Part shown: positions 2,495-31,784 of the stretch, one piece after another
How positions within the stretch are numbered: the stretch's first letter is position 1
How the letters are laid out: each line of letters begins with the position of its first letter
Origin: Trichlorobacter lovleyi SZ
GTDB lineage: Bacteria > Desulfobacterota > Desulfuromonadia > Geobacterales > Pseudopelobacteraceae
Assembly (NCBI RefSeq): GCF_000020385.1
Contig: NC_010814.1
Span: 3,300,001 to 3,332,000, forward strand
Length of the DNA: 32,000 nucleotides
Reading direction: 5' to 3'
Made by a program: the position numbers and the translations under genes
The notes under the pieces: model-generated
What the model saw: only the letters and a program-made list of their open reading frames with translations
What the model was told of the DNA's origin: nothing
The model's database searches: none

Positions 2495-2698
2495 GACTCT
2501 GTGCCAGACAAGGGGAAGCGGGTGCAACTCCCGCGCTGTCCCGCAACTGTAACCATCAGACCGGATCTGATGGGAGCCAGAACACCTTTCTGACACGCGC
2601 TTCAAGGAACCTCCGGGGAAAGAGGGACCGAAGCCGTGGTCTGTTCAACATGGTTTCCGTGCCCCTGTTCCTTTTTTGGGAACAGGGGTTTTTATTTT
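2495..2698 (+). promoter_or_regulatory. Cobalamin (AdoCbl) riboswitch with a terminator expression platform
   Basis: The conserved core aaggggaagcgggtgcaactcccgcgctgtcccgcaactgtaa lies at about 2510-2552. A B12-box-like gggagccagaacacc lies at 2572-2586. An intrinsic terminator follows, directly upstream of cobU. Confidence 0.85.
2662..2698 (+). terminator. Rho-independent terminator (riboswitch OFF-state)
   Basis: Stem cccctgttcc (2662-2671) pairs with ggaacagggg (2679-2688) and is followed by tttttatttt. Confidence 0.8.
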
Positions 2699-2715: not shown

Positions 2716-3249
2716 ATGGCCAACAACACCCTGATCACCGGCGGTGCACGCAGCGGCAAGAGCCGCTTTGCCGAGGAATTGACCCGCAGTTTCGGCCCGT
2801 CACTCTGCTATCTGGCCACAGCCCAACCTCTGGATGATGAAATGGGTGAGCGGATTCACCGGCATCAATTGCGGCGTGGCACCGCCTGGGAAACCCTTGA
2901 GGAACCGCTGATGATCCCCCAGACCCTGGCCCGGATCGACGGCATCTACAGCGCCATTCTGCTGGATTGCGTCACACTCTGGCTCTCAAACCTGCTGCTG
3001 TCCTGCGACGAAAACGATCCCGGCTGCGAAGAACAGGTCTTGAGCCATGTCCACCGGCTGGCCGGTACCCTGCGGGGGATGTCCACTCCGGTGGTGCTGG
3101 TGACCAATGAAGTCGGCCAGGGCATTGTGCCGGAAAACCGTCTAGGGCGGCTCTACCGCGACATTGCCGGGCAGGCCAACCAGCTGCTGGCTGCCGGCTG
3201 TGATGCCGTCTACGTCACGATCAGCGGCATCCCGCTGAAACTCAAATAA
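2716..3249 (+). CDS. cobU: Bifunctional adenosylcobinamide kinase / adenosylcobinamide-phosphate guanylyltransferase
   Basis: RBS AGGAGG is present. The N-terminal P-loop is [15 protein letters not shown]. The length is 177 aa and the gene is first after the B12 riboswitch. Confidence 0.9.
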
Positions 3250-3265
3250 CCTGAAGGACTCTTCC

Positions 3266-4324
3266 ATGAACCTGCTAGAAACCACGCTTGCCCGGATCAC
3301 CCCCCTTGACGCCGACCTGCTGCAACAGACCCAGCTCCGGCTGGATAACAAGACCAAACCACCGGGGTCACTGGGCCGGCTGGAGGAATTTGCCCGCCGG
3401 GTGGTTGCCATCAGCGGCAAAGCAGTCCCTGACCTCGCCAAAAAAGTGATCTTCACCTTTGCCGGTGACCACGGCGTGGTTGAGGAAGGGGTATCGGCCT
3501 TTCCCAAGGAGGTGACCCCCCAGATGGTGTTCAACTTCCTGCGCGGCGGGGCCGGGGTGAATGTGCTGGCCCGCCATGCCGGGGCCGAGGTGCGGGTGGT
3601 GGATGTGGGGGTTGATTTTGATTTTGAAGACTGCCCCGGCCTGCTGCATAAAAAGGTGGCCCGCGGCACCCGTAACCTGGCCAAAGGCCCGGCCATGACC
3701 CGCGACGAGGCCCTGGCTGCCCTGGCTGTCGGGATTGAGCTGGCTGAGCAGTGCAGCCGGGACGGGGTCGGTCTGGTGGGGACCGGCGAGATGGGGATCG
3801 GCAACACCACCCCCTCATCGGCCATTATCGCCGCCATTGGCGGTTTCTCGCCGGAGCAGGTCACCCATCGCGGCACCGGTATCAACGACCAGGCCCTGCA
3901 GATCAAGATCACTGCCATCAAGAAAGGGCTTGAACTGAACCGGCCCGACCCGACGGACCCGCTGGATGTGCTGATCAAGGTGGGCGGGCTGGAGATTGCC
4001 GCCATTGCCGGACTGGTGCTGGGCTGCGCGGCCAACCGGATTCCGGTGGTGGTGGACGGCTTTATCTCCACCGCCGGGGCGTTAATCGCCTCGGAACTGC
4101 ACCCCCAGGTGCGGGAATACCTGTTTGCCGCCCACGAGTCGGTTGAGGTGGGCCACCGCTTCATGCTGGAGCGGATCGGCGCCCGCCCCATGCTGGCCCT
4201 AGACCTGCGACTGGGGGAAGGGACCGGCGCAGCCCTGGCCATGCACCTGATTGAGGCCGGGGTCAAGATCCTGCTGGAGATGGCCACCTTTGAACAGGCC
4301 GGTGTCACCGGGAAACAGGAGTAG
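3266..4324 (+). CDS. cobT: Nicotinate-nucleotide--dimethylbenzimidazole phosphoribosyltransferase
   Basis: Typical CobT strings are present: [41 protein letters not shown]. The 388-aa antisense ORF (3142-4308) is Ser/Arg/Pro-rich shadow. Confidence 0.9.
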
Positions 4325-4332
4325 GGCCGACG

Positions 4333-5088
4333 ATGCGCCGCTTCCTGATCGCGCTGCAGTTTCTGACGATTCTGCCGGTCCCCTCGCCCAAAAGCTGTGA
4401 GGCCGACGACCTGGGCCGTTCAACCGCCTGGTTTCCGCTGGTGGGGCTGTGCATCGGCGGACTGCTGCTGCTGGCTGATCTGGCGCTGACCCCGCTCTTC
4501 CCCCGGCACCTGACCGATGCCCTGCTGGTGGCCCTGCTGGCCATTATCACCGGCGCCCTGCACCTGGATGGTCTGGCCGACGTCTGCGACGGCCTGGCAG
4601 CCCGGGGCAGTAAAGAGCGTTTTCTGGCGATCATGAAGGACTCCCGCACGGGAGCGATCGGCGCGGTTGGCCTGATCCTGCTGCTGCTGCTCAAGTATGC
4701 GGCCCTGCTGGCGGTGCCGATCTACCTGAAACGGGCCACCCTGCTGCTGTTCCCGCTTCTGGGCCGCTTCACCCAGGTGCTGGTCATGACCGGCGCCCGG
4801 GCCGCCCGGAGCGATGGCCTGGGGCTCTGTTTCCTCTCCGGCATCACCGGCACCCAGTTCTCACTGGCAGCGGCCTGCACCATCCCGCTCTGCTGGCTGC
4901 TCGGCCACTCAGGCGGGGTTGTTGCCCTCGGCCTGACCGCGGTCTGGGGCCTTGCCGTCAGACGCTACTTCACCCGGCGTCTGGGCGGCATCAGCGGTGA
5001 CATTGTCGGCTTCAGCAGTGAAATTGCCGAGCTGCTGGCCCTGCTTGCCGTTACCGCAACCACTACACTACTGACGAGGTACCTATGA
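4333..5088 (+). CDS. cobS: Adenosylcobinamide-GDP ribazoletransferase (cobalamin synthase)
   Basis: The N-terminus is FLIALQFLTILPVP. The protein is polytopic and carries the HLDGLAD motif. Its stop overlaps the cobC start (ATGA). Confidence 0.9.
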   Translation: MRRFLIALQFLTILPVPSPKSCEADDLGRSTAWFPLVGLCIGGLLLLADLALTPLFPRHLTDALLVALLAIITGALHLDGLADVCDGLAARGSKERFLAIMKDSRTGAIGAVGLILLLLLKYAALLAVPIYLKRATLLLFPLLGRFTQVLVMTGARAARSDGLGLCFLSGITGTQFSLAAACTIPLCWLLGHSGGVVALGLTAVWGLAVRRYFTRRLGGISGDIVGFSSEIAELLALLAVTATTTLLTRYL

Positions 5089-5687
5089 CCAGCATGACCC
5101 GCCTCTACCTGATCCGCCATGGTCAGGTGCAAGGCTTTGAACAGCGCCGCTACAACGGACACGCCGATGTTGCCCTGACCGACCTGGGGGTTGAACAGTA
5201 CCATCTGCTGAAGGATCGACTGGCTGACAGCCATATCTCGGCCTGCTACTCCAGCGACCTGACCCGCTGCAAGATCGGCGCAAACATCATCTGTGAACAG
5301 TTCGGGATAGAGCCGGTCCACCGTTCAGAGCTGCGCGAACTGAATATCGGTATCTGGGAAAGCCTGACCTGGCAGGAGATCCAGAGCCGCTGGCCCAATG
5401 AATGGCAGGCCCGCCTGAACGACCTGGTCAACTACCGGGTGCCGGAGGGGGAAAACCTGCTGGATGTGGAGGCCAGGGCCATGCCGGTGGTACGTGAAAT
5501 GCTGGAACGCCATCGTGGGCAGGAACTGCTGTTGGTGGGACACGGCGGTCTGAACCGGATCATCCTCTTGAATGCCATCGGGGCACCGCTGATCAACATG
5601 TTCAACATTGAGCAGAACTACGGCTGCCTGAATATCATCGACTACTATGCCGACGGCCGGGCAACGGTCAAGTTGCTGAACGGCTAA
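5085..5687 (+). CDS. cobC: Alpha-ribazole phosphatase (histidine phosphatase family)
   Basis: RHG motif (LYLIRHGQ) and GHGG motif are present. The length is 200 aa and the gene is translationally coupled to cobS. Confidence 0.8.
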   Translation: MTSMTRLYLIRHGQVQGFEQRRYNGHADVALTDLGVEQYHLLKDRLADSHISACYSSDLTRCKIGANIICEQFGIEPVHRSELRELNIGIWESLTWQEIQSRWPNEWQARLNDLVNYRVPEGENLLDVEARAMPVVREMLERHRGQELLLVGHGGLNRIILLNAIGAPLINMFNIEQNYGCLNIIDYYADGRATVKLLNG

Positions 5688-5716: not shown

Positions 5717-5758
5717 ATCCCCCGGCTTCACTCAACCGAAACCGGGGGATGTTTTGTT
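5717..5758 (+). terminator. Rho-independent terminator of the cob operon
   Basis: Stem atcccccgg (5717-5725) pairs with ccgggggat (5742-5750) and is followed by gttttgtt. Confidence 0.7.
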
Positions 5759-5784
5759 GGCACGCGCTCACGATTCCAATTACA

Positions 5785-5888
5785 GTTCAAGGATGATAGC
5801 ACGGCGGCGAAGGGCTCGGCGACGCAGGCGTACCTGCAGTACGTCGAGAAGCCGAGGCCAAGCCAACAAAGCTAGCGCCTTGAAATGG
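5785..5888 (+). repeat. Structured repeat family, copy A (core 5803-5867)
   Basis: Collinear blocks ggcggcga, ggcgacgcaggcgtacc, cgtcgag and aagccaac are shared with the reverse complement of 24599-24664 and, more loosely, with 26781-26846. The internal hairpin is cgtac-ctgca-gtacg. The copy overlaps the last ~5 codons and stop of the 5872-8772 gene. Confidence 0.7.
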
Positions 5889-8772
5889 AATTGGACTTGC
5901 GCTGAATATCCACCGTGGTCATCAACCCCTCCGGCGTAAACGTCAGCCGGGCATTAACCCGCTCCAGCGAATTGATCAGCCGCATGGTGGCTGAACTCTG
6001 ATCACTGAAGGCCGGCTGTTTGGGATGGTAGCGGTTACCGTGGACGGAACAGACAACCGCGCCGCTGGCCTCATCCAGACGGTATGTTCCACCTGACGGG
6101 CAGTAGGGCTGATAGCCGCGCAACGCCTCGGCGGTGGAGGCGAAGCTGTCCGGCGGCAGGCCCAGATTGCGCATCAGGATCGCGGCCAGGGGAAGATTCT
6201 TCTGGCAGGCATGGCGGAGATCCTCCTGATAACCGATACTGGAGGCCTCTTCCAGCTGCTTGAAGGCGGAACGGTAGACCGACAGCTCCATGTTCCCCGC
6301 ATGTTTTTCCACCTTTTGGGTTGTTCCCTTGGCCGAGGCATCCAGCAGGTCGGTCACGATATCACGCCGGGAGGCGATCACCAGCCGGTCATTCACCACT
6401 GCGGCATAGAGCCGCAGCTTGACCACAAACAGGGTGAAGTTGGCCACGTAGACCGGCTTGCCACGATGGTTTTCCAGGCTGTAGGTCTCCAGAGAAAGCT
6501 CATCCCGGCTGGAGTTTCCGGGGCCGACGGCCTGAAACAGCGCCGGGATGGACTGTTCCGCCTTTTTAGGGTCAGTGACCTTGACGGTCAGGTAGGTCGG
6601 CAGGTTGATGGCCGAGGCCAGATAGCCGATCACCAGCGGCTCAATCGAAGATGATCGTCCCACTTCCCGTCCCAGCAGCCCTGCAGCGCGGCCATCGGCA
6701 CTGAACAGGATCTGGCCGTCACACAGGTTGATGGCGACCTCATTTCCCAGCCAGTCCAGCTGCAGGTTGTTCCGGTAGATCCGTTTGTTGCCCAGCAGAT
6801 TCTTTTCCAGCCAATCCTGGGCCATGTGTCCCCGCAGGGAGAAGACCGTCCGCGGCAGCAGGGCGCTGTCGGTAACAACGCCGGGGTTCCGGCCCGAGAA
6901 GGCGGCCAGACCGTCATACCAGGAGTTTTCAATCAACGGCAGGATGCAGGTCTGGATACGGATGTTCCGGCCCAGCTTGACCCGGATGCCGATCGGATCA
7001 AAGAACTGGGTCCAGTAGCGGTTGTAGTTCTCGACAAAGCCCTTGTACTGTGCCGCCTCTTCAGGCGTTACTGCGGCAAGTTTCAGCTCGTTCAGCGGCG
7101 TCAGTCTTCCGGGACGGTTGTGCACCGGGCAGTAGACCTCACCCCGGGCATCGATTGCGTAGGCGCCATGTTCAGGGCAGACCGGCGGGTTCTTGCCCAG
7201 ATACCCGCCTGCCACCAGTTCAGCCATGCCGGGTTCCCGCCGCCTCTCTGCCTTGAACCAGAGCCGGGCATTGGCAATCAGCCCCATGTTGGCGCTGCAC
7301 TGCATCCGGCGGGCCTCGGCAATCTTCCAGTGCGGCCCCACCAGGTTGCGGATATGGGCATCGGAAAGGTAGATGAAGATATCCTCTTCCTTGGCATCCT
7401 GGGGAAAGATGGTGCGCATGTAGCGGAAGTCATCGGCCTGGGCCAGGGCCGGCGCCTGCCGTGCCTCCACCGCCAGCACCCGCTCCAGGGCGGCCTGACT
7501 GGTGGATACCACGGCAAGGTTCTTGATGATCACGGCGTAGGACGATACCCGGCGATCGGCGGAGACCGCAGCAATAACGTTCCTGCCGTGCAGTTCCGAG
7601 ACCGACTGGACAGCACCGCGACTACGGGCAGCCTCGGCATACTGTTTTTCCAGCTGCTTGCGAAACCGGCCGGCATCCTTGAGGCTGAACAGCACGGTAA
7701 CCGCCGTCCCCTCCTTCAGAAAGGGATCGCTGCCGGTAATGGCCATATCCGCCACCACCCGGTCACCAAACATCCGTGTCAACAGGCTGTTCTCAAGACA
7801 GAGCTGCCTGCTGACCTTCTCCCGCACCTTGAAATCCTGGGCACTGCTTTCCACCTGGCGCAACAGGTTGCCGCCCCATTCGTCCATCAAGTCGGCCAGT
7901 TCGATCTGTTTGTTGATATCATTAAAGAACACGGCATACTGGTCATCAGGTATAGAGGATGCCAACAGCGGCAGCGCAGGACTCCTCCCCTTCAGCATCT
8001 CCTTGAAGGGGTGCGATTTGATCTGCGGCCCCTGCAGGCCTACAAGGCTGACAGGTTGTTCCCTGCTAGCGGCAACGCGGGCATTGGCCCCGTTCAACAG
8101 CTCCAGCTGCAGCGTCTCCTGAATCGCCGCAGCACCGGTAAAGACGCTGTAGAGGTCGGGGCTTTCGCGGCGGGAACGGTTTCTGCTACCGGGCAGCTGA
8201 GCTTCAAGGCCATAGCGGGGGGCGATCGCCAGATTCCAGTACTGGCTGTAGGCATCATCGCCCTCGGGGTCTGACCTCCAGAGCGACCATTGGTACTGCT
8301 TGGCCCACTCGCTCCTGATGGTGGCATCGCCGGTGGCATCGGCATCCGGCAGGGTAAAGGCCAGGCGCAGCAGATCACCCTTTGCGGTACGGCTCTGAAT
8401 GGCAAGCTGAGCCGGGCCGGGCTTCAGGTACCGGCCGGTAACCGTAATCATTTCTTCGGTCTGCTCAAGCCGGACCTGTCCTGCTTCGTCAGCATCCGTA
8501 TGGGTATGCCGCCCCTTTGCAGGGGTCAGCAGGTTGACGGTCACCAGAAAGATATCACCATCCTCAACCCTGGGGGTAAGTAGCAGGGGCTGCTTTGTGC
8601 TGCTCTTTGGCAACTTCGTTACAATCCGGAAATACCCCTCATCACCGTTCCTATAGATCTCCGGCACAACCGTAACAGCGGGGGGTGCGCTGATCTTGAC
8701 CGCTGCAACGGCCCCCAGGGCGGCAACGACCAACAACGCGGCCAGCAACGGCACCACTAGACGTCGAGACAT
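5872..8772 (-). CDS. Large secreted protein of unknown function (966 aa) with two pseudopilin-like Cys modules
   Basis: RBS AAAGGAG lies 6 nt upstream of the ATG at 8772, which is preferred over the ORF-track start at 8805. The signal peptide is MSRRLVVPLLAALLVVAALGAVAA. Amino-acid composition is balanced, unlike the 482-aa antisense ORF (6826-8274). An internal duplicated module is present (see findings). Confidence 0.8.
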   Translation of the reverse strand: MSRRLVVPLLAALLVVAALGAVAAVKISAPPAVTVVPEIYRNGDEGYFRIVTKLPKSSTKQPLLLTPRVEDGDIFLVTVNLLTPAKGRHTHTDADEAGQVRLEQTEEMITVTGRYLKPGPAQLAIQSRTAKGDLLRLAFTLPDADATGDATIRSEWAKQYQWSLWRSDPEGDDAYSQYWNLAIAPRYGLEAQLPGSRNRSRRESPDLYSVFTGAAAIQETLQLELLNGANARVAASREQPVSLVGLQGPQIKSHPFKEMLKGRSPALPLLASSIPDDQYAVFFNDINKQIELADLMDEWGGNLLRQVESSAQDFKVREKVSRQLCLENSLLTRMFGDRVVADMAITGSDPFLKEGTAVTVLFSLKDAGRFRKQLEKQYAEAARSRGAVQSVSELHGRNVIAAVSADRRVSSYAVIIKNLAVVSTSQAALERVLAVEARQAPALAQADDFRYMRTIFPQDAKEEDIFIYLSDAHIRNLVGPHWKIAEARRMQCSANMGLIANARLWFKAERRREPGMAELVAGGYLGKNPPVCPEHGAYAIDARGEVYCPVHNRPGRLTPLNELKLAAVTPEEAAQYKGFVENYNRYWTQFFDPIGIRVKLGRNIRIQTCILPLIENSWYDGLAAFSGRNPGVVTDSALLPRTVFSLRGHMAQDWLEKNLLGNKRIYRNNLQLDWLGNEVAINLCDGQILFSADGRAAGLLGREVGRSSSIEPLVIGYLASAINLPTYLTVKVTDPKKAEQSIPALFQAVGPGNSSRDELSLETYSLENHRGKPVYVANFTLFVVKLRLYAAVVNDRLVIASRRDIVTDLLDASAKGTTQKVEKHAGNMELSVYRSAFKQLEEASSIGYQEDLRHACQKNLPLAAILMRNLGLPPDSFASTAEALRGYQPYCPSGGTYRLDEASGAVVCSVHGNRYHPKQPAFSDQSSATMRLINSLERVNARLTFTPEGLMTTVDIQRKSNSISRR

Positions 8773-8817
8773 ATACGCTCCTTTCACCTGCACAAATTCA
8801 AACACGGGATTCCTCTT

Positions 8818-14545: not shown

Positions 14546-14570
14546 TTCTTCGCTTTAAAACTTTTCACTA

Positions 14571-14610
14571 AAAAGCGGGTGCGACCATCATGGTTGCACC
14601 CGCTTTTATT
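14571..14610 (+). terminator. Rho-independent terminator after proC
   Basis: aaaagcgggtgc (14571-14582) pairs with gcacccgctttt (14596-14607), followed by att. Confidence 0.8.
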
Positions 14611-14803
14611 CTTTCATGCTGTCCCACAAAAAACCTTTGTTTGTTATAAAATTTTCAATCTGCTCCCAAAGCCGCTTACCCGCTGCAATATTCTATCTTT
14701 TGAGTTTCACCGCAAGACCACTTTTTCACAGTTCACGAGCAACGAAATCAACATCATTGTCAGCATTATCTGTCCAAGTATAGGTTATCCAAATTGTAGC
14801 CAC
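14606..14803 (-). pseudogene. Degenerate N-terminal stub of a TIR/STIR-like domain gene, with two in-frame stops, truncated at ~65 codons
   Basis: My hand translation of the minus strand, after RBS GAGAGGAGAG, is (V/M)ATIWITYTWTDNADNDVDFVAREL*KSGLAVKLKR*NIAAGKRLWEQIENFITNKGFLWDSMKE*. The pattern hhISYsW.D......fV..L...L...G..V..D..ni..G..lw..Ie..I is that of bacterial TIR-like N-termini. The region is lower in GC. Confidence 0.45.
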
Positions 14804-23923: not shown

Positions 23924-25207
23924 CTACCCCAGCTTCTTCTTGAACCTGCGCACAGAGATCCCCAAAATCAACAGGGCGAAGCCCAGCAGGAACAGGGCCT
24001 GGGGCCAGAGTACCCCTAGCCCGACATCTTTCAGGTAGATCCCTCGCAGGATGTTGACAAAGTAGCGGGCCACCACGATATGGCTGACCGCCTGGATCGG
24101 GGCCGGCATGTTCTCCAGCGGAAAGATGAAACCGGACAGCAGAAAGGCAGGCAGCACCGTCACCAACAGAGCCAGTTGACTGGCCAGCAGCTGGCTCTTG
24201 GCAATGATGCTGATCAGCATCCCCACTGCCAGCGCCCCCACCAGGAACAGTAGCGACAGGGCAGAGAGCAGCAGCAGACTGCCTTTCAACGGCACACTGA
24301 ACACGAAATAACCGACCCCCACCGACAGCAGCAGGTCCACCACCCCGATGCAGAAATAGGGGGCCAGCTTGCCGATGATCAGCTCCCACTTGCGCACCGG
24401 CATGGTCACGATCTGCTCCATGGTGCCGGTCTCCCACTCCCGTGCCATGCTGAGCGAGGTCAACAGCGCCGCCACGATCATCATGATCACCGGGATCAGG
24501 CCAGGGAAGATGAAGTTTCTCGATACCAGGTCGGTGTTGAACCAGACTCGGGGCCTGATCTCAAGCTGTGGTGAGGCCATATCCGGCCGGATACGTTCGT
24601 TGGCTTCGTCGGGTCCTCCTCGACGTGCTGCTCGGTACGCCTGCGTCGCCCCCTCCTCGCCGCCTGCTTCTCCGACCGCCTCTGACCTCACTATAACGGT
24701 TTGTTTCGTATAGTTACGTTGCAACTGCTGGATAACTATCTGGCGCGACCAGGTCAGTATGATCGCCTCGGCATAGCCCTGGGCGATGGTGGCGGTGCTG
24801 GGGTCGCTGCCGTCCAGGATCACCTGCAGGCTTGGGCTGTCCCCGGTCTCCAGCCGGTTGGCAAAATCAGGCGGGATCACCAGGGCGATCAACGCCTCAC
24901 GCCGGTCCACCGCCCGTTCCAGGTCGGCGTAGGACAGGGCATGGGAGCGAAGTGAGAAGTAGCGCGAGCCCTCAAACCTGCTGATCAGCTCCCGGCTCTG
25001 GCTGGTACCACTCTGGTCCCAGACCGCCAGTGGTACCCGATCCACATCCAGAGTCAGGGCGTAGCCGAACAGAAACAACATGATCAGCGGCATCAGAATA
25101 CCCAGCGCCAGACTGCGCGGGTCCCGCAGCACATGCAGAAATTCCTTGCGCCCCACTGCGCTGATCCGCCGCAGAGAGGCGTTTGCCACAGAGGACACAG
25201 AGTTCAT
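23924..25207 (-). CDS. ABC-2 type transporter permease (YbhS/YbhR-like), 427 aa, carrying a repeat-derived insertion
   Basis: It is a paralogue of the downstream permease (RKEFLHVLRDPRS, WFNTDL, six TM segments). Its start overlaps the ATPase stop (ATGA). The extra G/E/A/R-rich segment coincides with repeat copy B. Confidence 0.85.
   Translation of the reverse strand: MNSVSSVANASLRRISAVGRKEFLHVLRDPRSLALGILMPLIMLFLFGYALTLDVDRVPLAVWDQSGTSQSRELISRFEGSRYFSLRSHALSYADLERAVDRREALIALVIPPDFANRLETGDSPSLQVILDGSDPSTATIAQGYAEAIILTWSRQIVIQQLQRNYTKQTVIVRSEAVGEAGGEEGATQAYRAARRGGPDEANERIRPDMASPQLEIRPRVWFNTDLVSRNFIFPGLIPVIMMIVAALLTSLSMAREWETGTMEQIVTMPVRKWELIIGKLAPYFCIGVVDLLLSVGVGYFVFSVPLKGSLLLLSALSLLFLVGALAVGMLISIIAKSQLLASQLALLVTVLPAFLLSGFIFPLENMPAPIQAVSHIVVARYFVNILRGIYLKDVGLGVLWPQALFLLGFALLILGISVRRFKKKLG
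24575..24700 (-). repeat. Structured repeat family, copy B (core 24599-24664), inside a coding sequence
   Basis: The reverse complement shares ggcggcga, the exact 17-mer ggcgacgcaggcgtacc (24634-24650 against 5818-5834), cgtcgag and aagccaac with copy A, in the same order and spacing. Confidence 0.7.
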
Positions 25208-26739: not shown

Positions 26740-26764
26740 CAAGACCAGTCCAGGCGATGTCAGA

Positions 26765-26868
26765 ATTCAGATGATACCAAGGCGGTGAGGAGCAATCGAC
26801 GCAGGCATAGTTAAGCGCTATGTCGAGGAGTTTTCGACGAACCAACGCCGGTAGCGCTGGATTATGGC
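26765..26868 (+). repeat. Structured repeat family, copy C (core 26781-26846)
   Basis: Blocks are ggcggtga, cgacgcaggc, gtcgaggag, cgacgaaccaac. The hairpin is catag-ttaagcg-ctatg, compensatory relative to copy A. It fills the spacer between the adaptor and ATPase genes and contains the adaptor gene's stop codon. Confidence 0.65.
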
Positions 26869-27845
26869 ATCGTAATCACCGCATCCACCGGCATGCCCGG
26901 CTTCAGTTCCTGCTTCGGATTGGCAATCGTGACCTTGATACGATAGACCAGCTTGACCCGTTCAGCCTCGGTCTGTACGTTGCGCGGGGTGAATTCGGCC
27001 TCGGAGGCTATGAAGCTGACCGTGCCCTGATAGGTGCGCCCCTTCCAGGTATCACTGCTGACGGAAACCTGCTGACCCAGCTTAATCTTGCCCAACTGGG
27101 GCTCCGGCAGGAAGGCCCGCACCCAGACCTCGTCGAGACGGGCCACAGTGATCACCGGGCTGCCGGCAGCCAGCAGCTCACCCGGCTCGGCATGTTTAGC
27201 AAGCACCGTACCGTTGAGCGGAGCGGCCAGCACCGCCTGGGACAAGCGGATATCGGCCAGTGAACGGGATGCCGTTGCCCCTTCCAGGCGGGCCCGGGCG
27301 GCCCGCACCGCGTCAGGCCGGGGACCGGCCTTGGCCAGCTGCAGGCGCTGTTCTGCCTCACGCACCGCCGCAGCGGCAGCATCCCTGACTGCCCGGGCAG
27401 CATCCAGCTCCTTGCGGGGAATCACCTCTTTCCTGAACAACGCCTCGGCCCGGACAGCATCCTGGGCGGCCCGCTCTGATTCGGCCTTGAGCCGGGCAAG
27501 GGTGGCAGCAGTGGCGGCAATCTCCTCCTGGCGGCTACCGGCCCTCAGGTCGGCAAGCACAGCCTGAGCTGCCTGTTGATCAGCGGCACGGGCCAAACGC
27601 TCGTCCTTCAGCTCGTCATCCTCCAGCCGGGCTACAACCTGACCGGCCCTGACCTGCTGCCCTTCATCCACCAACCGTTCTTTGAGACGGCCCGGCACCT
27701 TGAATGAAACCGCTACCGTGGTGGCCTCTATCGTGCCGGTTAGCCTGAGCCTCCCGTTGGCAGCCTGCGTACGGCGCATAACCATTACAGCCAGCACTCC
27801 CAGCACCAAAACAGCAAGCAGACCAATCAGTACCTTTTTTTTCAT
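26862..27845 (-). CDS. HlyD-family periplasmic adaptor (YbhG-like), 327 aa
   Basis: RBS AAAGGGAG precedes the ATG at 27845. The N-terminal TM anchor is MKKKVLIGLLAVLVLGVLAVMV. An Ala/Arg/Glu-rich coiled-coil hairpin and a beta-barrel C-terminus are present. Confidence 0.85.
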   Translation of the reverse strand: MKKKVLIGLLAVLVLGVLAVMVMRRTQAANGRLRLTGTIEATTVAVSFKVPGRLKERLVDEGQQVRAGQVVARLEDDELKDERLARAADQQAAQAVLADLRAGSRQEEIAATAATLARLKAESERAAQDAVRAEALFRKEVIPRKELDAARAVRDAAAAAVREAEQRLQLAKAGPRPDAVRAARARLEGATASRSLADIRLSQAVLAAPLNGTVLAKHAEPGELLAAGSPVITVARLDEVWVRAFLPEPQLGKIKLGQQVSVSSDTWKGRTYQGTVSFIASEAEFTPRNVQTEAERVKLVYRIKVTIANPKQELKPGMPVDAVITMP

Positions 27846-27980
27846 CCTGCTACTCCCTTTTGACTTCATAGCGCGTGCATATCTGTTCATACCATAACAG
27901 CCGGCATGCTGCCAGACCTGTGCAGGCATGCACCACCCTCCATACACGCCGGCATCACAAAATTCTGCAGGAGAAACAGC

Positions 27981-28020
27981 AAAAAAAAAAGACTCCTGAA
28001 ACGATCTTGTTTCAGGAGTC
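27981..28020 (-). terminator. Rho-independent terminator after the YjfB-like gene
   Basis: The minus strand reads gactcctgaaac-aagatc-gtttcaggagtc followed by a T10 run. Confidence 0.85.
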
Positions 28021-28062
28021 ACGATGGTATTCTGACTTTCTGCTCAGATGTACTGAATACGG

Positions 28063-30261: not shown

Positions 30262-30349
30262 GGAGGGGTGTCCGAGAGGTCGAAGGTGACAGACTCGAAA
30301 TCTGTTGTACCGCAAGGTACCCAGGGTTCGAATCCCTGCCCCTCCGCCA
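30262..30349 (+). tRNA. tRNA-Ser (anticodon CGA)
   Basis: I folded this by hand. The acceptor is ggagggg/cccctcc. The anticodon stem is acaga/tctgt with loop ctCGAaa. The long variable arm is tgtaccgcaaggtacc. The T-arm is cagggttcgaatccctg, and the 3' CCA is encoded. Confidence 0.9.
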
Positions 30350-30435: not shown

Positions 30436-30528
30436 ATTGGTATGCTTGAGTCAGGTCTGTTTGTTGGTATATCAGTTGGTGCTCACTTCATACCAACAAA
30501 ACAAATACCAACAAAAAGAATACCAACA
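30436..30528. promoter_or_regulatory. Array of ATACCAACA / TGTTGGTAT repeats, putative integrase arm-type or regulatory sites
   Basis: Direct copies lie at 30490-30498, 30505-30513 and 30520-30528, with a 15-nt period. Inverted copies lie at 30462-30470 and, partially, 30436-30443. Confidence 0.45.
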
Positions 30529-30545
30529 TGGGAGGAACAGCAGCC

Positions 30546-31784
30546 ATGCCACGTCAAAACGCCCCCCTCGCGGACATTCAAGTCAATAAAGCCAAGAAAA
30601 AAGAAAAAGATTACAAGCTGTCAGACGGCGGTGGTTTGCACTTGCTGGTAACCAAAACGGGCGGGAAACTGTGGCGGATGCAATATCGTTTCGACGGCAA
30701 ACAGAAAATGTTGTCTTTCGGGGCGTATCCAGCCATTTCCCTGGCTGATGCACGGCAACGCAGGGAGGATGCACGCAAGCTGCTGGCAAATGGTCAAGAC
30801 CCGGCAGCGGTTAAGAAAGCTGTTCAGGAGGCCGCTGTTGTAGCCGCTGCGTCCACCTTTGCGATTGTGGCCGGTGAATGGTTCCAGAAGCGCAAGCCGG
30901 AATGGGTAGACAGCCACGCCGTATCCGTCAAGGGGCGGCTTGATAACTATATTCTGCCAGCGTTCGGCAGCAAACCAATTGTAGAGGTCACGGCGGCAGA
31001 TGTTCGCACCATGTTGTTAAAGATTGAGGCACGGGGGACTATAGAGGCAGCCAAACGGGTAAAGGTCATCTGCGGGCAGGTTTTCAGGTATGCGGCAGCC
31101 CATGACCTGATTCAGCATGACCCATCGGCAGCACTCAAGCCGTCTGAACTATTCCGCAAGGTAGAAAAACGGCACTTTGCAGCCGTTACAGACCCGAAAG
31201 AACTTGCACCACTGCTGCGGTCAATCGAGGGCTACACTGGCAGCATTGAAACCCGTTGTGCCTTGCGACTGCTGCCTATGTTGCTGATGCGTCCCGGTGA
31301 ACTCAGGCATTTAGAATGGTCTGAAATAGACCGTGAAGCAGGACAGATAAATATTCCAGCCGAAAAAATGAAGATGAGAACTGCCCACACCGTACCGCTT
31401 TGCAAACAAGCTCTGGCTATTCTGGAAGAGATCAGGCCACTGACCGGACACGGCAAATATGTTTTCCCTTCCACCAGATCAGCAGAACGTCCCATTTCTG
31501 ATAACACCCTGAATGCCTGTTTCCGGCGGATGGGGTACGATAGCGACACCGTGACAGCTCACGGATTCCGCGCAACTGCCAGAACCATTCTGGATGAAGT
31601 GCTGGGGTTCCGCCCTGACATTATTGAGCATCAGCTTGCACATGCTGTGAAAGATCCAAACGGCAGGGCTTACAACCGGACGGCTTTTATCGATGATCGA
31701 CGGAAGATGATGCAGCAATGGTCAGACTATCTGGACAGCCTGAAGGCCGGGGCGAAGGTGATACCAATATCAAAGGCGGCATGA
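30546..31784 (+). CDS. Tyrosine recombinase, P4/CP4-57-type phage integrase
   Basis: RBS GGGAGGAA precedes the ATG at 30546. The DUF4102-like N-terminus is YKLSDGGGLHLLVTKTGGKLWRMQYRF. The catalytic region includes HGFRATARTIL and the HQLAH..NGRAYNR Tyr motif. The gene is adjacent to a tRNA gene. Confidence 0.9.
   Translation: MPRQNAPLADIQVNKAKKKEKDYKLSDGGGLHLLVTKTGGKLWRMQYRFDGKQKMLSFGAYPAISLADARQRREDARKLLANGQDPAAVKKAVQEAAVVAAASTFAIVAGEWFQKRKPEWVDSHAVSVKGRLDNYILPAFGSKPIVEVTAADVRTMLLKIEARGTIEAAKRVKVICGQVFRYAAAHDLIQHDPSAALKPSELFRKVEKRHFAAVTDPKELAPLLRSIEGYTGSIETRCALRLLPMLLMRPGELRHLEWSEIDREAGQINIPAEKMKMRTAHTVPLCKQALAILEEIRPLTGHGKYVFPSTRSAERPISDNTLNACFRRMGYDSDTVTAHGFRATARTILDEVLGFRPDIIEHQLAHAVKDPNGRAYNRTAFIDDRRKMMQQWSDYLDSLKAGAKVIPISKAA

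Follow-up and report, generated by a model that had tools for sequence, protein, structure and literature searches.

What kind of element places the same folded sequence over the end of one gene, inside a second gene, and between two genes of an operon? The question is raised by a 32,000-nt stretch of the genome of Trichlorobacter lovleyi SZ (contig NC_010814.1, positions 3,300,001 to 3,332,000; hereafter the window, whose own numbering is used throughout). An initial annotation, made from the sequence alone, had recognized three copies of a structured repeat there, here called A, B and C. We conclude, with a probability of about 0.85, that these repeats belong to a MITE (miniature inverted-repeat transposable element) family of about 123 bp in the Thermodesulfobacteriota, which duplicates a TNA target and enters genes in frame in the manner of the Rickettsia palindromic elements (RPEs). 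The family is hitherto unnamed; the kind of element is already known and is not a new kind of system.

The three loci are real and lie where they had been annotated: the string CGACGCAGGC-N8-24-GTCGAG occurs at 5820-5848 (+), 24619-24648 (-) and 26797-26827 (+), i.e., three matches in the window versus none in 100 dinucleotide-preserving shuffles. The collinear blocks GGCGGYGA, CGACGCAGGC, GTCGAG and AA(G)CCAAC follow in the same order in copies A, B and C, and the 17-mer GGCGACGCAGGCGTACC is common to A and B, both as first described; it is absent from C. The extent of about 65 nt, in contrast, proved to be the central part only, as a full copy is a hairpin of about 120–123 nt with an additional outer stem of about 25 bp. 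What had escaped the initial annotation, besides the 123-nt size and the long outer stem, is that copy B sits within a gene and that a TNA target is duplicated.

Relatives were gathered with the pattern GGCGGYGA-N6-11-CGACGCAGGC-N8-24-GTCGAG, using one genome per species, which yielded at least 120 loci (numbered with an L below); copy numbers and the taxonomic range of the family are thus to be read as lower bounds. Among the matches listed, about 45 loci are true relatives that carry the rest of the core and the long outer stem, and about 75 are chance matches in high-G+C actinobacteria and other taxa. The true relatives among these matches come from Geobacter, Trichlorobacter, Geobacteraceae metagenome-assembled genomes (MAGs), Syntrophales, Syntrophus, Desulfobacteraceae, ORM2a and “delta proteobacterium” MAGs, which by NCBI taxonomy are several classes of the phylum Thermodesulfobacteriota (the former Deltaproteobacteria). 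One Syntrophobacteraceae MAG holds at least 13 copies. A covariance model built from 47 sequences finds 49 further copies in 45 related loci, four of these copies lying outside the exact pattern. Elements are 120–125 nt long, with 45–47 nt across the pattern region, where the loop length varies. They have no coding capacity of their own, with stops in most frames of most copies; a protein-coding repeat is ruled out by these stops together with loop-length differences of 1–2 nt between copies.

In a full-sensitivity scan of the window the covariance model finds exactly three copies, at 93–106 bits, and the next match scores 14.7 bits. The latter, at 14560-14618, is a perfect-looking hairpin of about 20 bp after a proC-like gene; it matches the outer stem alone and is probably an ordinary terminator. 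The lack of a named family was borne out: an Rfam scan of the window returned only a tRNA and a cobalamin riboswitch, with nothing relevant around copy A at E <= 10. Plasmid, phage and IMG/VR collections gave no match to the element, and its core strings were found neither in the literature searched nor in the text of the supplements to three Geobacter genome papers.

Copy A (5774..5896, plus strand) is a complete 123-nt element of the TTCCGATT...AATCGGAA subfamily, scoring 103.6 bits with the covariance model. Its ends were set by comparison with members of the subfamily and with an empty/filled pair of cobU genes described below; its final base is mutated. The right arm, read on the opposite strand, supplies the last eight codons and the stop (5872-5874) of a 977-aa hypothetical gene (5872..5896, minus strand), the last six residues being NSISRR. 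The annotated overlap of copy A with the last codons and stop of a minus-strand gene applies to the full element only, and the listed open reading frame (ORF) has 977 aa, its orthologues being called at 966–971 aa. A terminator-like hairpin at 5717..5750, between the convergent cobC-like and 977-aa genes, adjoins copy A and lies outside the element; it is kept in L123, which is without copy A.

Copy B (24571..24691, minus strand; 121 nt, 92.9 bits) belongs to the same G(T/C)GAGGTC subfamily as L019. It is not intergenic: it lies in frame and in the sense orientation within an ABC-2 permease ORF (23924..25207, minus strand; ABC2_membrane_3 match, E = 1.9e-49), with the predicted translation ...VRSEAVGEAGGEEGATQAYRAARRGGPDEANERIRPDMA.... 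Copy C (26754..26873, plus strand; 120 nt, 106.1 bits) belongs to the GGCGATGTCAGAATTCAG subfamily, as does L005. It lies between HlyD-like and ABC ATPase genes of the same minus-strand operon, antisense to both, and its right arm contains the TAA stop codon (26862..26864, minus strand) with which the HlyD-like gene 26862..28022(-) ends. The inner stem of copy C shows partial decay in the window; in the relatives L121 and L122 (109.5 bits) it is intact, as GAAAGC/GCTTTC. Compared with shuffles, the single strands fold at -56.6 kcal/mol (z = -7.0) for A, -50.1 kcal/mol (z = -2.4) for B and -45.6 kcal/mol (z = -3.9) for C. The sole promoter or terminator signal inside the copies of the window is one weak promoter-like match, which overlaps A at its left end.

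Sequence ends, flanks and orthologous sites together point to mobility. Within subfamilies, similarity stops sharply at the ends of the element (TACCAAGTTGC...GCGACTTGGTA, TACGGAGTTGC...CTTCGTA and TTCCGATT...AATCGGAA), the subfamily termini being TTCCGATTYCAG.., TACCAAGTTGCATTC.. and TACGGAGTTGCATTC... Directly outside both ends, about 20 copies carry an identical 3-bp TNA, which differs between copies (TAA, TGA, TCA or TTA). A duplication of TA or AT, suggested by the universal A...T flanks, was superseded by this 3-bp TNA duplication. Empty and filled sites can be compared cleanly in cobU. The empty gene of the window (2716..3249) reads ...GGCCCG TCA CTCTGCTATCTGG..., and the filled gene of a Trichlorobacter MAG (L039) reads ...AGCGCT TCA (123-nt element) TCG CTTTGCTACCTGG..., which lengthens the gene by 126 nt (42 codons) and leaves it in frame.

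Empty orthologous sites are also known for copies A and B. The permease that hosts copy B has 427 aa in the window and 387 aa in L121 (P0004), the two being 96% identical outside the insert and the latter exactly 40 aa, or 120 nt, shorter. At L122 (10414-10700), the homologue of copy B has lost 36 nt in frame, comprising the central hairpin and part of the core, and the insert is 12 residues shorter; it is a snapshot of decay under reading-frame constraint. Orthologues of the 977-aa gene with the element end in ...RKSNSISRR*, and those without it end in ...RKSGKKSW*; the orthologous loci L123 and L124, which have the latter ending, give no match to the model and lack copy A. No clean junction could be read for A or B, as the empty loci L121, L123 and L124 are diverged or rearranged beside the insertion points. 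Copy C is older than B, as it is present at the same site in two relatives (L121 and L122).

A non-coding hairpin repeat of about 123 bp, well within the limit of about 500 bp usual for MITEs, with terminal inverted repeats, a 3-bp TNA duplication, and dispersed copies that differ in presence and absence, including empty sites, is what leads us to classify the family as a MITE. The same observations bear on the REP part of the initial proposal. Movement of a REP/REPIN-type element as single-stranded DNA, by a RAYT or an IS200/IS605-type Y1 transposase, would fit the strand-specific fold with its G-T wobbles (see below), the position of copies at gene 3' ends and between convergent genes, and the lack of a transposase adjoining them. 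However, REP/REPIN and IS200/IS605-type systems insert without target duplication, whereas about 20 copies and the cobU pair show the 3-bp TNA duplication; the element consists of one 123-nt hairpin, whose conserved loops are asymmetric, rather than of two inverted REPs of about 25 nt, and in-frame intragenic copies are common. We consider this route very unlikely, and REP proper is excluded because REPs make no target duplication. In its essentials the proposal is upheld, as regards both the MITE, through the target-site duplications and empty sites, and the likeness to RPEs, through the in-frame insertions in genes.

Between genes, the two orientations relative to the neighbors are about equally common, and the majority of copies are only a few bases away from a stop codon. 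For about eight copies, the triplet that is duplicated doubles as the stop of the neighboring gene; the right arm encloses the stop codon in L005 and in copies A and C of the window. TNA comprises TAA and TGA together with TTA and TCA, their complements, so that a stop codon would be regenerated by an insertion into it. Such regeneration, and hence near-neutrality, could explain both the pile-up of copies at gene 3' ends and the stops supplied by A and C. The neighboring genes are unrelated housekeeping genes that share no function (pta, cytochrome bd, histidine kinases, cob genes, ABC transporters and others).

Inside genes the picture is one-sided. At least eight independent intragenic copies are known, all in the sense orientation, and the Pfam domains of the host continue on both sides. 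The hosts are the ABC-2 permease (copy B), CobU, a GGDEF response regulator, a UvrA-like protein, an AMP-binding enzyme, MutS2, an HD-domain protein and a thioesterase. In most of these in-frame copies the frame used is the one that gives ...QGGEEGATQAY..VRRG.PDEAN.... Purines predominate in the top strand, each of whose three frames gives hydrophilic, acidic, glycine-rich peptides, with grand averages of hydropathy from -0.5 to -2.1 (-1 to -2 in most copies), compared with -1.0 to +0.6 for the antisense frames, even where these are open. The restriction to the sense orientation would follow from this difference, and selection on the host protein would be a sufficient explanation for it. The same intragenic copy is found at the same site of the UvrA-like gene in two Geobacter-family genomes (L042 3178-3300 and L094 288-410), so intragenic copies can outlast a speciation event. 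A single compensatory pair change (G-C to A-T) distinguishes the two versions, besides several one-sided changes and others by which pairs are broken.

These sites also bear on the small structured RNA module that the initial annotation had listed. A free-standing module of this kind is unsupported because copies occur in either orientation relative to their neighbors and within unrelated genes. More generally, the repeats could be a structured non-coding RNA gene or a cis-regulatory RNA (a small RNA, a riboswitch-like leader or an element of the 3' untranslated region) that merely happens to be multicopy. The strong fold with covariation, the conserved unpaired nucleotides, and the frequent occurrence in transcribed intergenic regions of operons, as for copy C, would suit such an RNA, but copies sit in frame inside eight unrelated protein-coding genes, take both orientations to neighbors without a common function, match no Rfam family, carry target duplications and differ in presence or absence between close orthologues. 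An RNA of this type is therefore highly improbable as the explanation of the family as a whole.

The fold itself is well defined. The element forms one long imperfect hairpin, in which an outer stem of about 25 bp constitutes the terminal inverted repeats and differs between subfamilies. Inside it lies a nearly invariant, purine-rich core, GGCGGCGAGGAG..GCGACGCAGGCGTAC-loop-GTACGTCGAGGAG..GACGAAGCCAAC. In the outer stem, 25 of 25 pairs have changed on both sides, and 85% of positions are paired compared with 31–36% when the partner column is slid by 1–3 positions; the terminal 8-mers are complementary in most copies. The inner stem P3 shows double changes at all six of its pairs, e.g., TTCGGC/GCCGAA, GTTGC/GCAAC, ATTAC/GTAAT, GAAAGC/GCTTTC and GCAAAC/GTTTGC. 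These covariation figures are somewhat inflated, the alignment having been fitted to the structure, and their contrast with the slid controls is very large. RNAalifold on the raw MAFFT alignment recovered only a partial structure with the outer arms out of register, so the structure was imposed before realignment with the covariance model. Fold z-scores span -2.4 to -10.

In copy A the central hairpin spans 5827..5845 (plus strand) and reads GGCGTAC, loop CTGCA, GTACGTC; comparison with copy C (GGCATAG/CTATGTC) reproduces the two compensatory pair changes first noted between these copies. Family-wide this helix is 97% paired, and the same two pairs (columns 71/117 and 74/114 of the family alignment) are the only ones in it with double changes. 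The proposal that a folded hairpin rather than the primary sequence is under selection is thus upheld, in that the stems covary. The purine-rich internal loops that lie between the helices (GAGGAG, GACGCA, GAGGAG and GACGAAG) hardly vary. At L087:5690-5829, where the model match is weak (30.7 bits), the outer core motifs AAGGCG..CGCGAGGAGG and CCGACGAAGCGCAAC are retained alongside a different, longer central hairpin, a hint that the center of the element is exchangeable. At L023 2629-2848, about 100 nt of unrelated sequence separates the right arm from the core, which could be a nested insertion or a rearrangement. An origin of the outer stem as an inverted duplication of target DNA, prompted by a weak (~50%) match of the right arm of B to its empty site, was rejected because the arms of B match the unrelated insertion L019 and arms are shared within subfamilies.

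The two strands of the element are not equivalent. Counted over one representative per 85%-identity cluster (26 clusters), the outer stem contains 62 G-U/U-G compared with 10 A-C/C-A combinations, and 69 purine-purine compared with 18 pyrimidine-pyrimidine mismatches. The GGCGG (top) strand folds more stably in 26 of 26 clusters, by a mean of 12 kcal/mol. Together, the conserved interior and the one-strand fold suggest that the hairpin with its loops plays a part at a single-stranded stage, of either DNA or RNA, that is important to the spread or persistence of the element. It is therefore conceivable, if on balance doubtful, that the MITE also carries a functional single-stranded module, which would extend rather than exclude its classification. 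Such a module may be a structure that the mobilizing enzyme recognizes on top-strand single-stranded DNA, or an RNA motif that serves the host or the element, e.g., in processing, stability or protein binding.

In favor of a module are the nearly invariant core in the face of covarying helices P1, P3 and P4, the wobble and mismatch asymmetries and the uniformly better fold of the top strand, as well as the retention of the outer core motifs at L087:5690-5829 despite its different central hairpin. On the other hand, intergenic copies are about equally sense and antisense, so their orientation is not linked to transcription; no Rfam match was obtained; the copies of the window have no promoter or terminator beyond the weak match at the left end of A; and decay is visible both in copy C and in copy B as it stands in L122. 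The invariance of the core is also inflated by the way in which relatives were gathered.

The spread of the element could be envisaged as follows. Insertion takes place at 5'-TNA-3' and creates the 3-bp duplication. Such duplications at TNA or TWA are characteristic of the IS1031, IS427 and ISL2 groups of the IS5 family of insertion sequences (IS) and of the eukaryotic PIF/Harbinger elements, and we infer that a DDE transposase, which would be encoded at another place in the genome, acts on the element in trans and cuts the TNA target with a 3-bp stagger. Insertion into a stop codon would regenerate the stop, be nearly neutral and allow copies to accumulate at gene ends. Sense insertion of 123 + 3 = 126 nt into protein loops would be tolerated and translated, and antisense intragenic copies would be removed by selection.

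Several points weigh against the MITE interpretation. The duplications of the window copies are degenerate (cga and ttg for A, and unclear for B and C), and the TNA rule was established on relatives. Neither a transposase nor solitary arms nor a full-length IS with the same ends was found in the approximately 0.95 Mb of loci compared, the one odd case being the interrupted copy of L023; both the putative mobilizing enzyme and the tentative IS5-type assignment accordingly derive from the target-duplication signature. Moreover, in ordinary MITEs the termini are conserved and the interior drifts. Here the reverse is seen, with a core that is almost invariant across classes and termini that are subfamily-specific. 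This invariance is partly a matter of ascertainment, as 24 core positions were fixed by the search pattern, and conservation is also found at core positions outside the pattern and in the four copies found by the model alone. Finally, a strand-specific fold is not expected from a double-stranded cut-and-paste DDE mechanism. We also considered whether two close copies might flank a transposase or cargo, as at L052 and L013; the genes between and around those copies are ordinary metabolic and signaling genes.

The remainder of the window provides the setting of the three copies; its proteins show about 80% identity to Trichlorobacter proteins. A cobalamin riboswitch aptamer (RF00174, 40.1 bits) at 2513-2586 (+) precedes a cobU-cobT-cobS-cobC-like operon (2716..5687, plus strand) that ends just before copy A. 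The gene at 5872..8805 (-) encodes a conserved protein of about 966–977 aa (Geob_0069 family). Its homologues number about 100 and come from Geobacteraceae and from a few other phyla; neither Pfam nor NCBIfam assigns it a domain, and it is named “uncharacterized Zn finger protein (UPF0148 family)” in one source. At L122 (9639-10004), a PDDEXK_3-family gene stands between the ABC ATPase and permease genes and is absent from the same operon of the window. No transposase is encoded in the window, in agreement with the initial annotation; the only recombinase is a phage-type integrase at the far end (30528..31784, plus strand; Arm-DNA-bind_3, Phage_int_M and Phage_integrase domains), which follows a tRNA-Ser(CGA) gene at 30262-30349 (+) and with it probably marks where an integrated element begins or ends; at the corresponding position, L122 carries an integrase together with small phage-like genes.

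The family matters first for annotation, as it accounts for about 40 extra residues in the ABC-2 permease, CobU, MutS2, the UvrA-like protein and others, and for altered 3' ends and stops of genes. A family model would account for odd insertions and extended or altered C-termini in genomes and MAGs of Geobacter, Trichlorobacter and syntrophic bacteria. Free-living anaerobes, too, have a palindromic repeat that invades genes in frame, a behavior known best from the RPEs of Rickettsia. With its documented TNA rule and clean empty sites, the element offers a tractable system for studying the tolerance of proteins to inserts and the emergence of new peptide segments, and its conserved core and one-strand folding bias may be relevant to the way in which orphan MITEs, ERIC and Correia elements among them, are moved.

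Among known repeats, the architecture is closest to that of ERIC/IRU elements, which are likewise imperfect palindromes some 125 bp long and occupy transcribed intergenic regions in both orientations, and for which intragenic copies with open reading frames have been reported (PMC10969869). This raises the question of whether the repeats are a distant member of the ERIC or Correia families rather than a separate family. Size and architecture are alike (ERIC is a 127-bp imperfect palindrome). In the ERIC copy of the Escherichia coli ybhJ-ybhI intergenic region (L125 110-236), we observed AAGGCGAC, AACGCAG and CTTGAA at nearly the same distances from the termini as here. That copy shares the TAC termini, has AAGGCG(A/G)C about 26 nt from the left end and has AACGCAG and CTTGAA at similar distances from the right end; eight of eight best pairwise alignments with ERIC are in the same orientation. 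Nevertheless, the similarity is not significant (covariance model 7.8 bits, E = 0.12 in a 344-nt search; 10 of 200 shuffles attain the best global alignment score), no relation is seen in the central ~50 nt, and the host group differs. ERIC and Correia elements are, moreover, reported to duplicate TA rather than TNA.

The interiors of Correia elements may contain GGCGACGAAGCC- and GGCGAGGCAACGCCGTAC-like strings that resemble the core here; of the two, only GGCGAGGCAACGCCGTAC was confirmed, in a gonococcal repeat paper, and GGCGACGAAGCC was not found. The Correia elements of Neisseria (CREE/NEMIS) are MITEs of about 104–157 bp with long terminal inverted repeats that form hairpins (PMC3184786, PMC5039591). 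Their 26-bp terminal repeat, TATAGTGGATTAA... (sequences taken from PMC5039591), is absent here: TATAGTGGATTAA(A/C)... has no match, with up to six mismatches, in 952 kb that include all copies, and the target here is TNA, not TA. Membership in either family is thus improbable, and homology to ERIC or Correia elements is possible and unproven. A broader proposal combines hairpin-dependent transposition with TNA duplication, or a host-level RNA motif, with the uniting of this family, ERIC and possibly Correia elements in one ancient, multi-phylum hairpin superfamily; we regard it as speculative and rather unlikely.

MITEs of the IS5 family (IS1031, IS427 and ISL2 groups) and the PIF/Harbinger-Tourist elements share the 3-bp TNA/TWA target duplication; no transposase or full-length parent with matching ends was found in the loci compared, and the termini here are TTCC.., TACC.. 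and TACG... A MITE has been described in the same bacterial family, Chunjie of Geobacter uraniireducens (Chen et al. 2008). As described in PMC3184786 and PMC10969869, Chunjie is 178–235 bp long and A+T-rich, with 21-bp terminal repeats and 9-bp direct repeats, and, like the present element, it lies within operons without disrupting them, some copies overlapping genes. By these features the present element, with 123 bp, a G+C-rich core and 3-bp TNA repeats, is set apart from it. Geobacter genome papers (Aklujkar et al.: PMC2700814, PMC2996986, PMC3543383) report palindromic multicopy families in intergenic regions and others in genes without frameshift; those inside genes, e.g., GGACCGG heptanucleotide repeats, differ from the present element.

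The closest parallel in behavior is with the RPEs. In PMC10969869, these are described as palindromic elements that are inserted in frame in genes and encode a conserved peptide (Ogata et al. 2000). Both are palindromic hairpin repeats of 100–150 bp with several subfamilies, found between genes and in frame in unrelated functional genes, where they are translated as a hydrophilic peptide without destroying the host protein, and a transposase is known for neither. The hosts differ (Rickettsiales versus Thermodesulfobacteriota), the present element has a documented 3-bp TNA duplication and empty sites, and its intragenic copies in this sample are exclusively sense. The likeness is one of behavior, and we would accordingly place the family beside the RPEs as an element that works like them rather than as one of their members.

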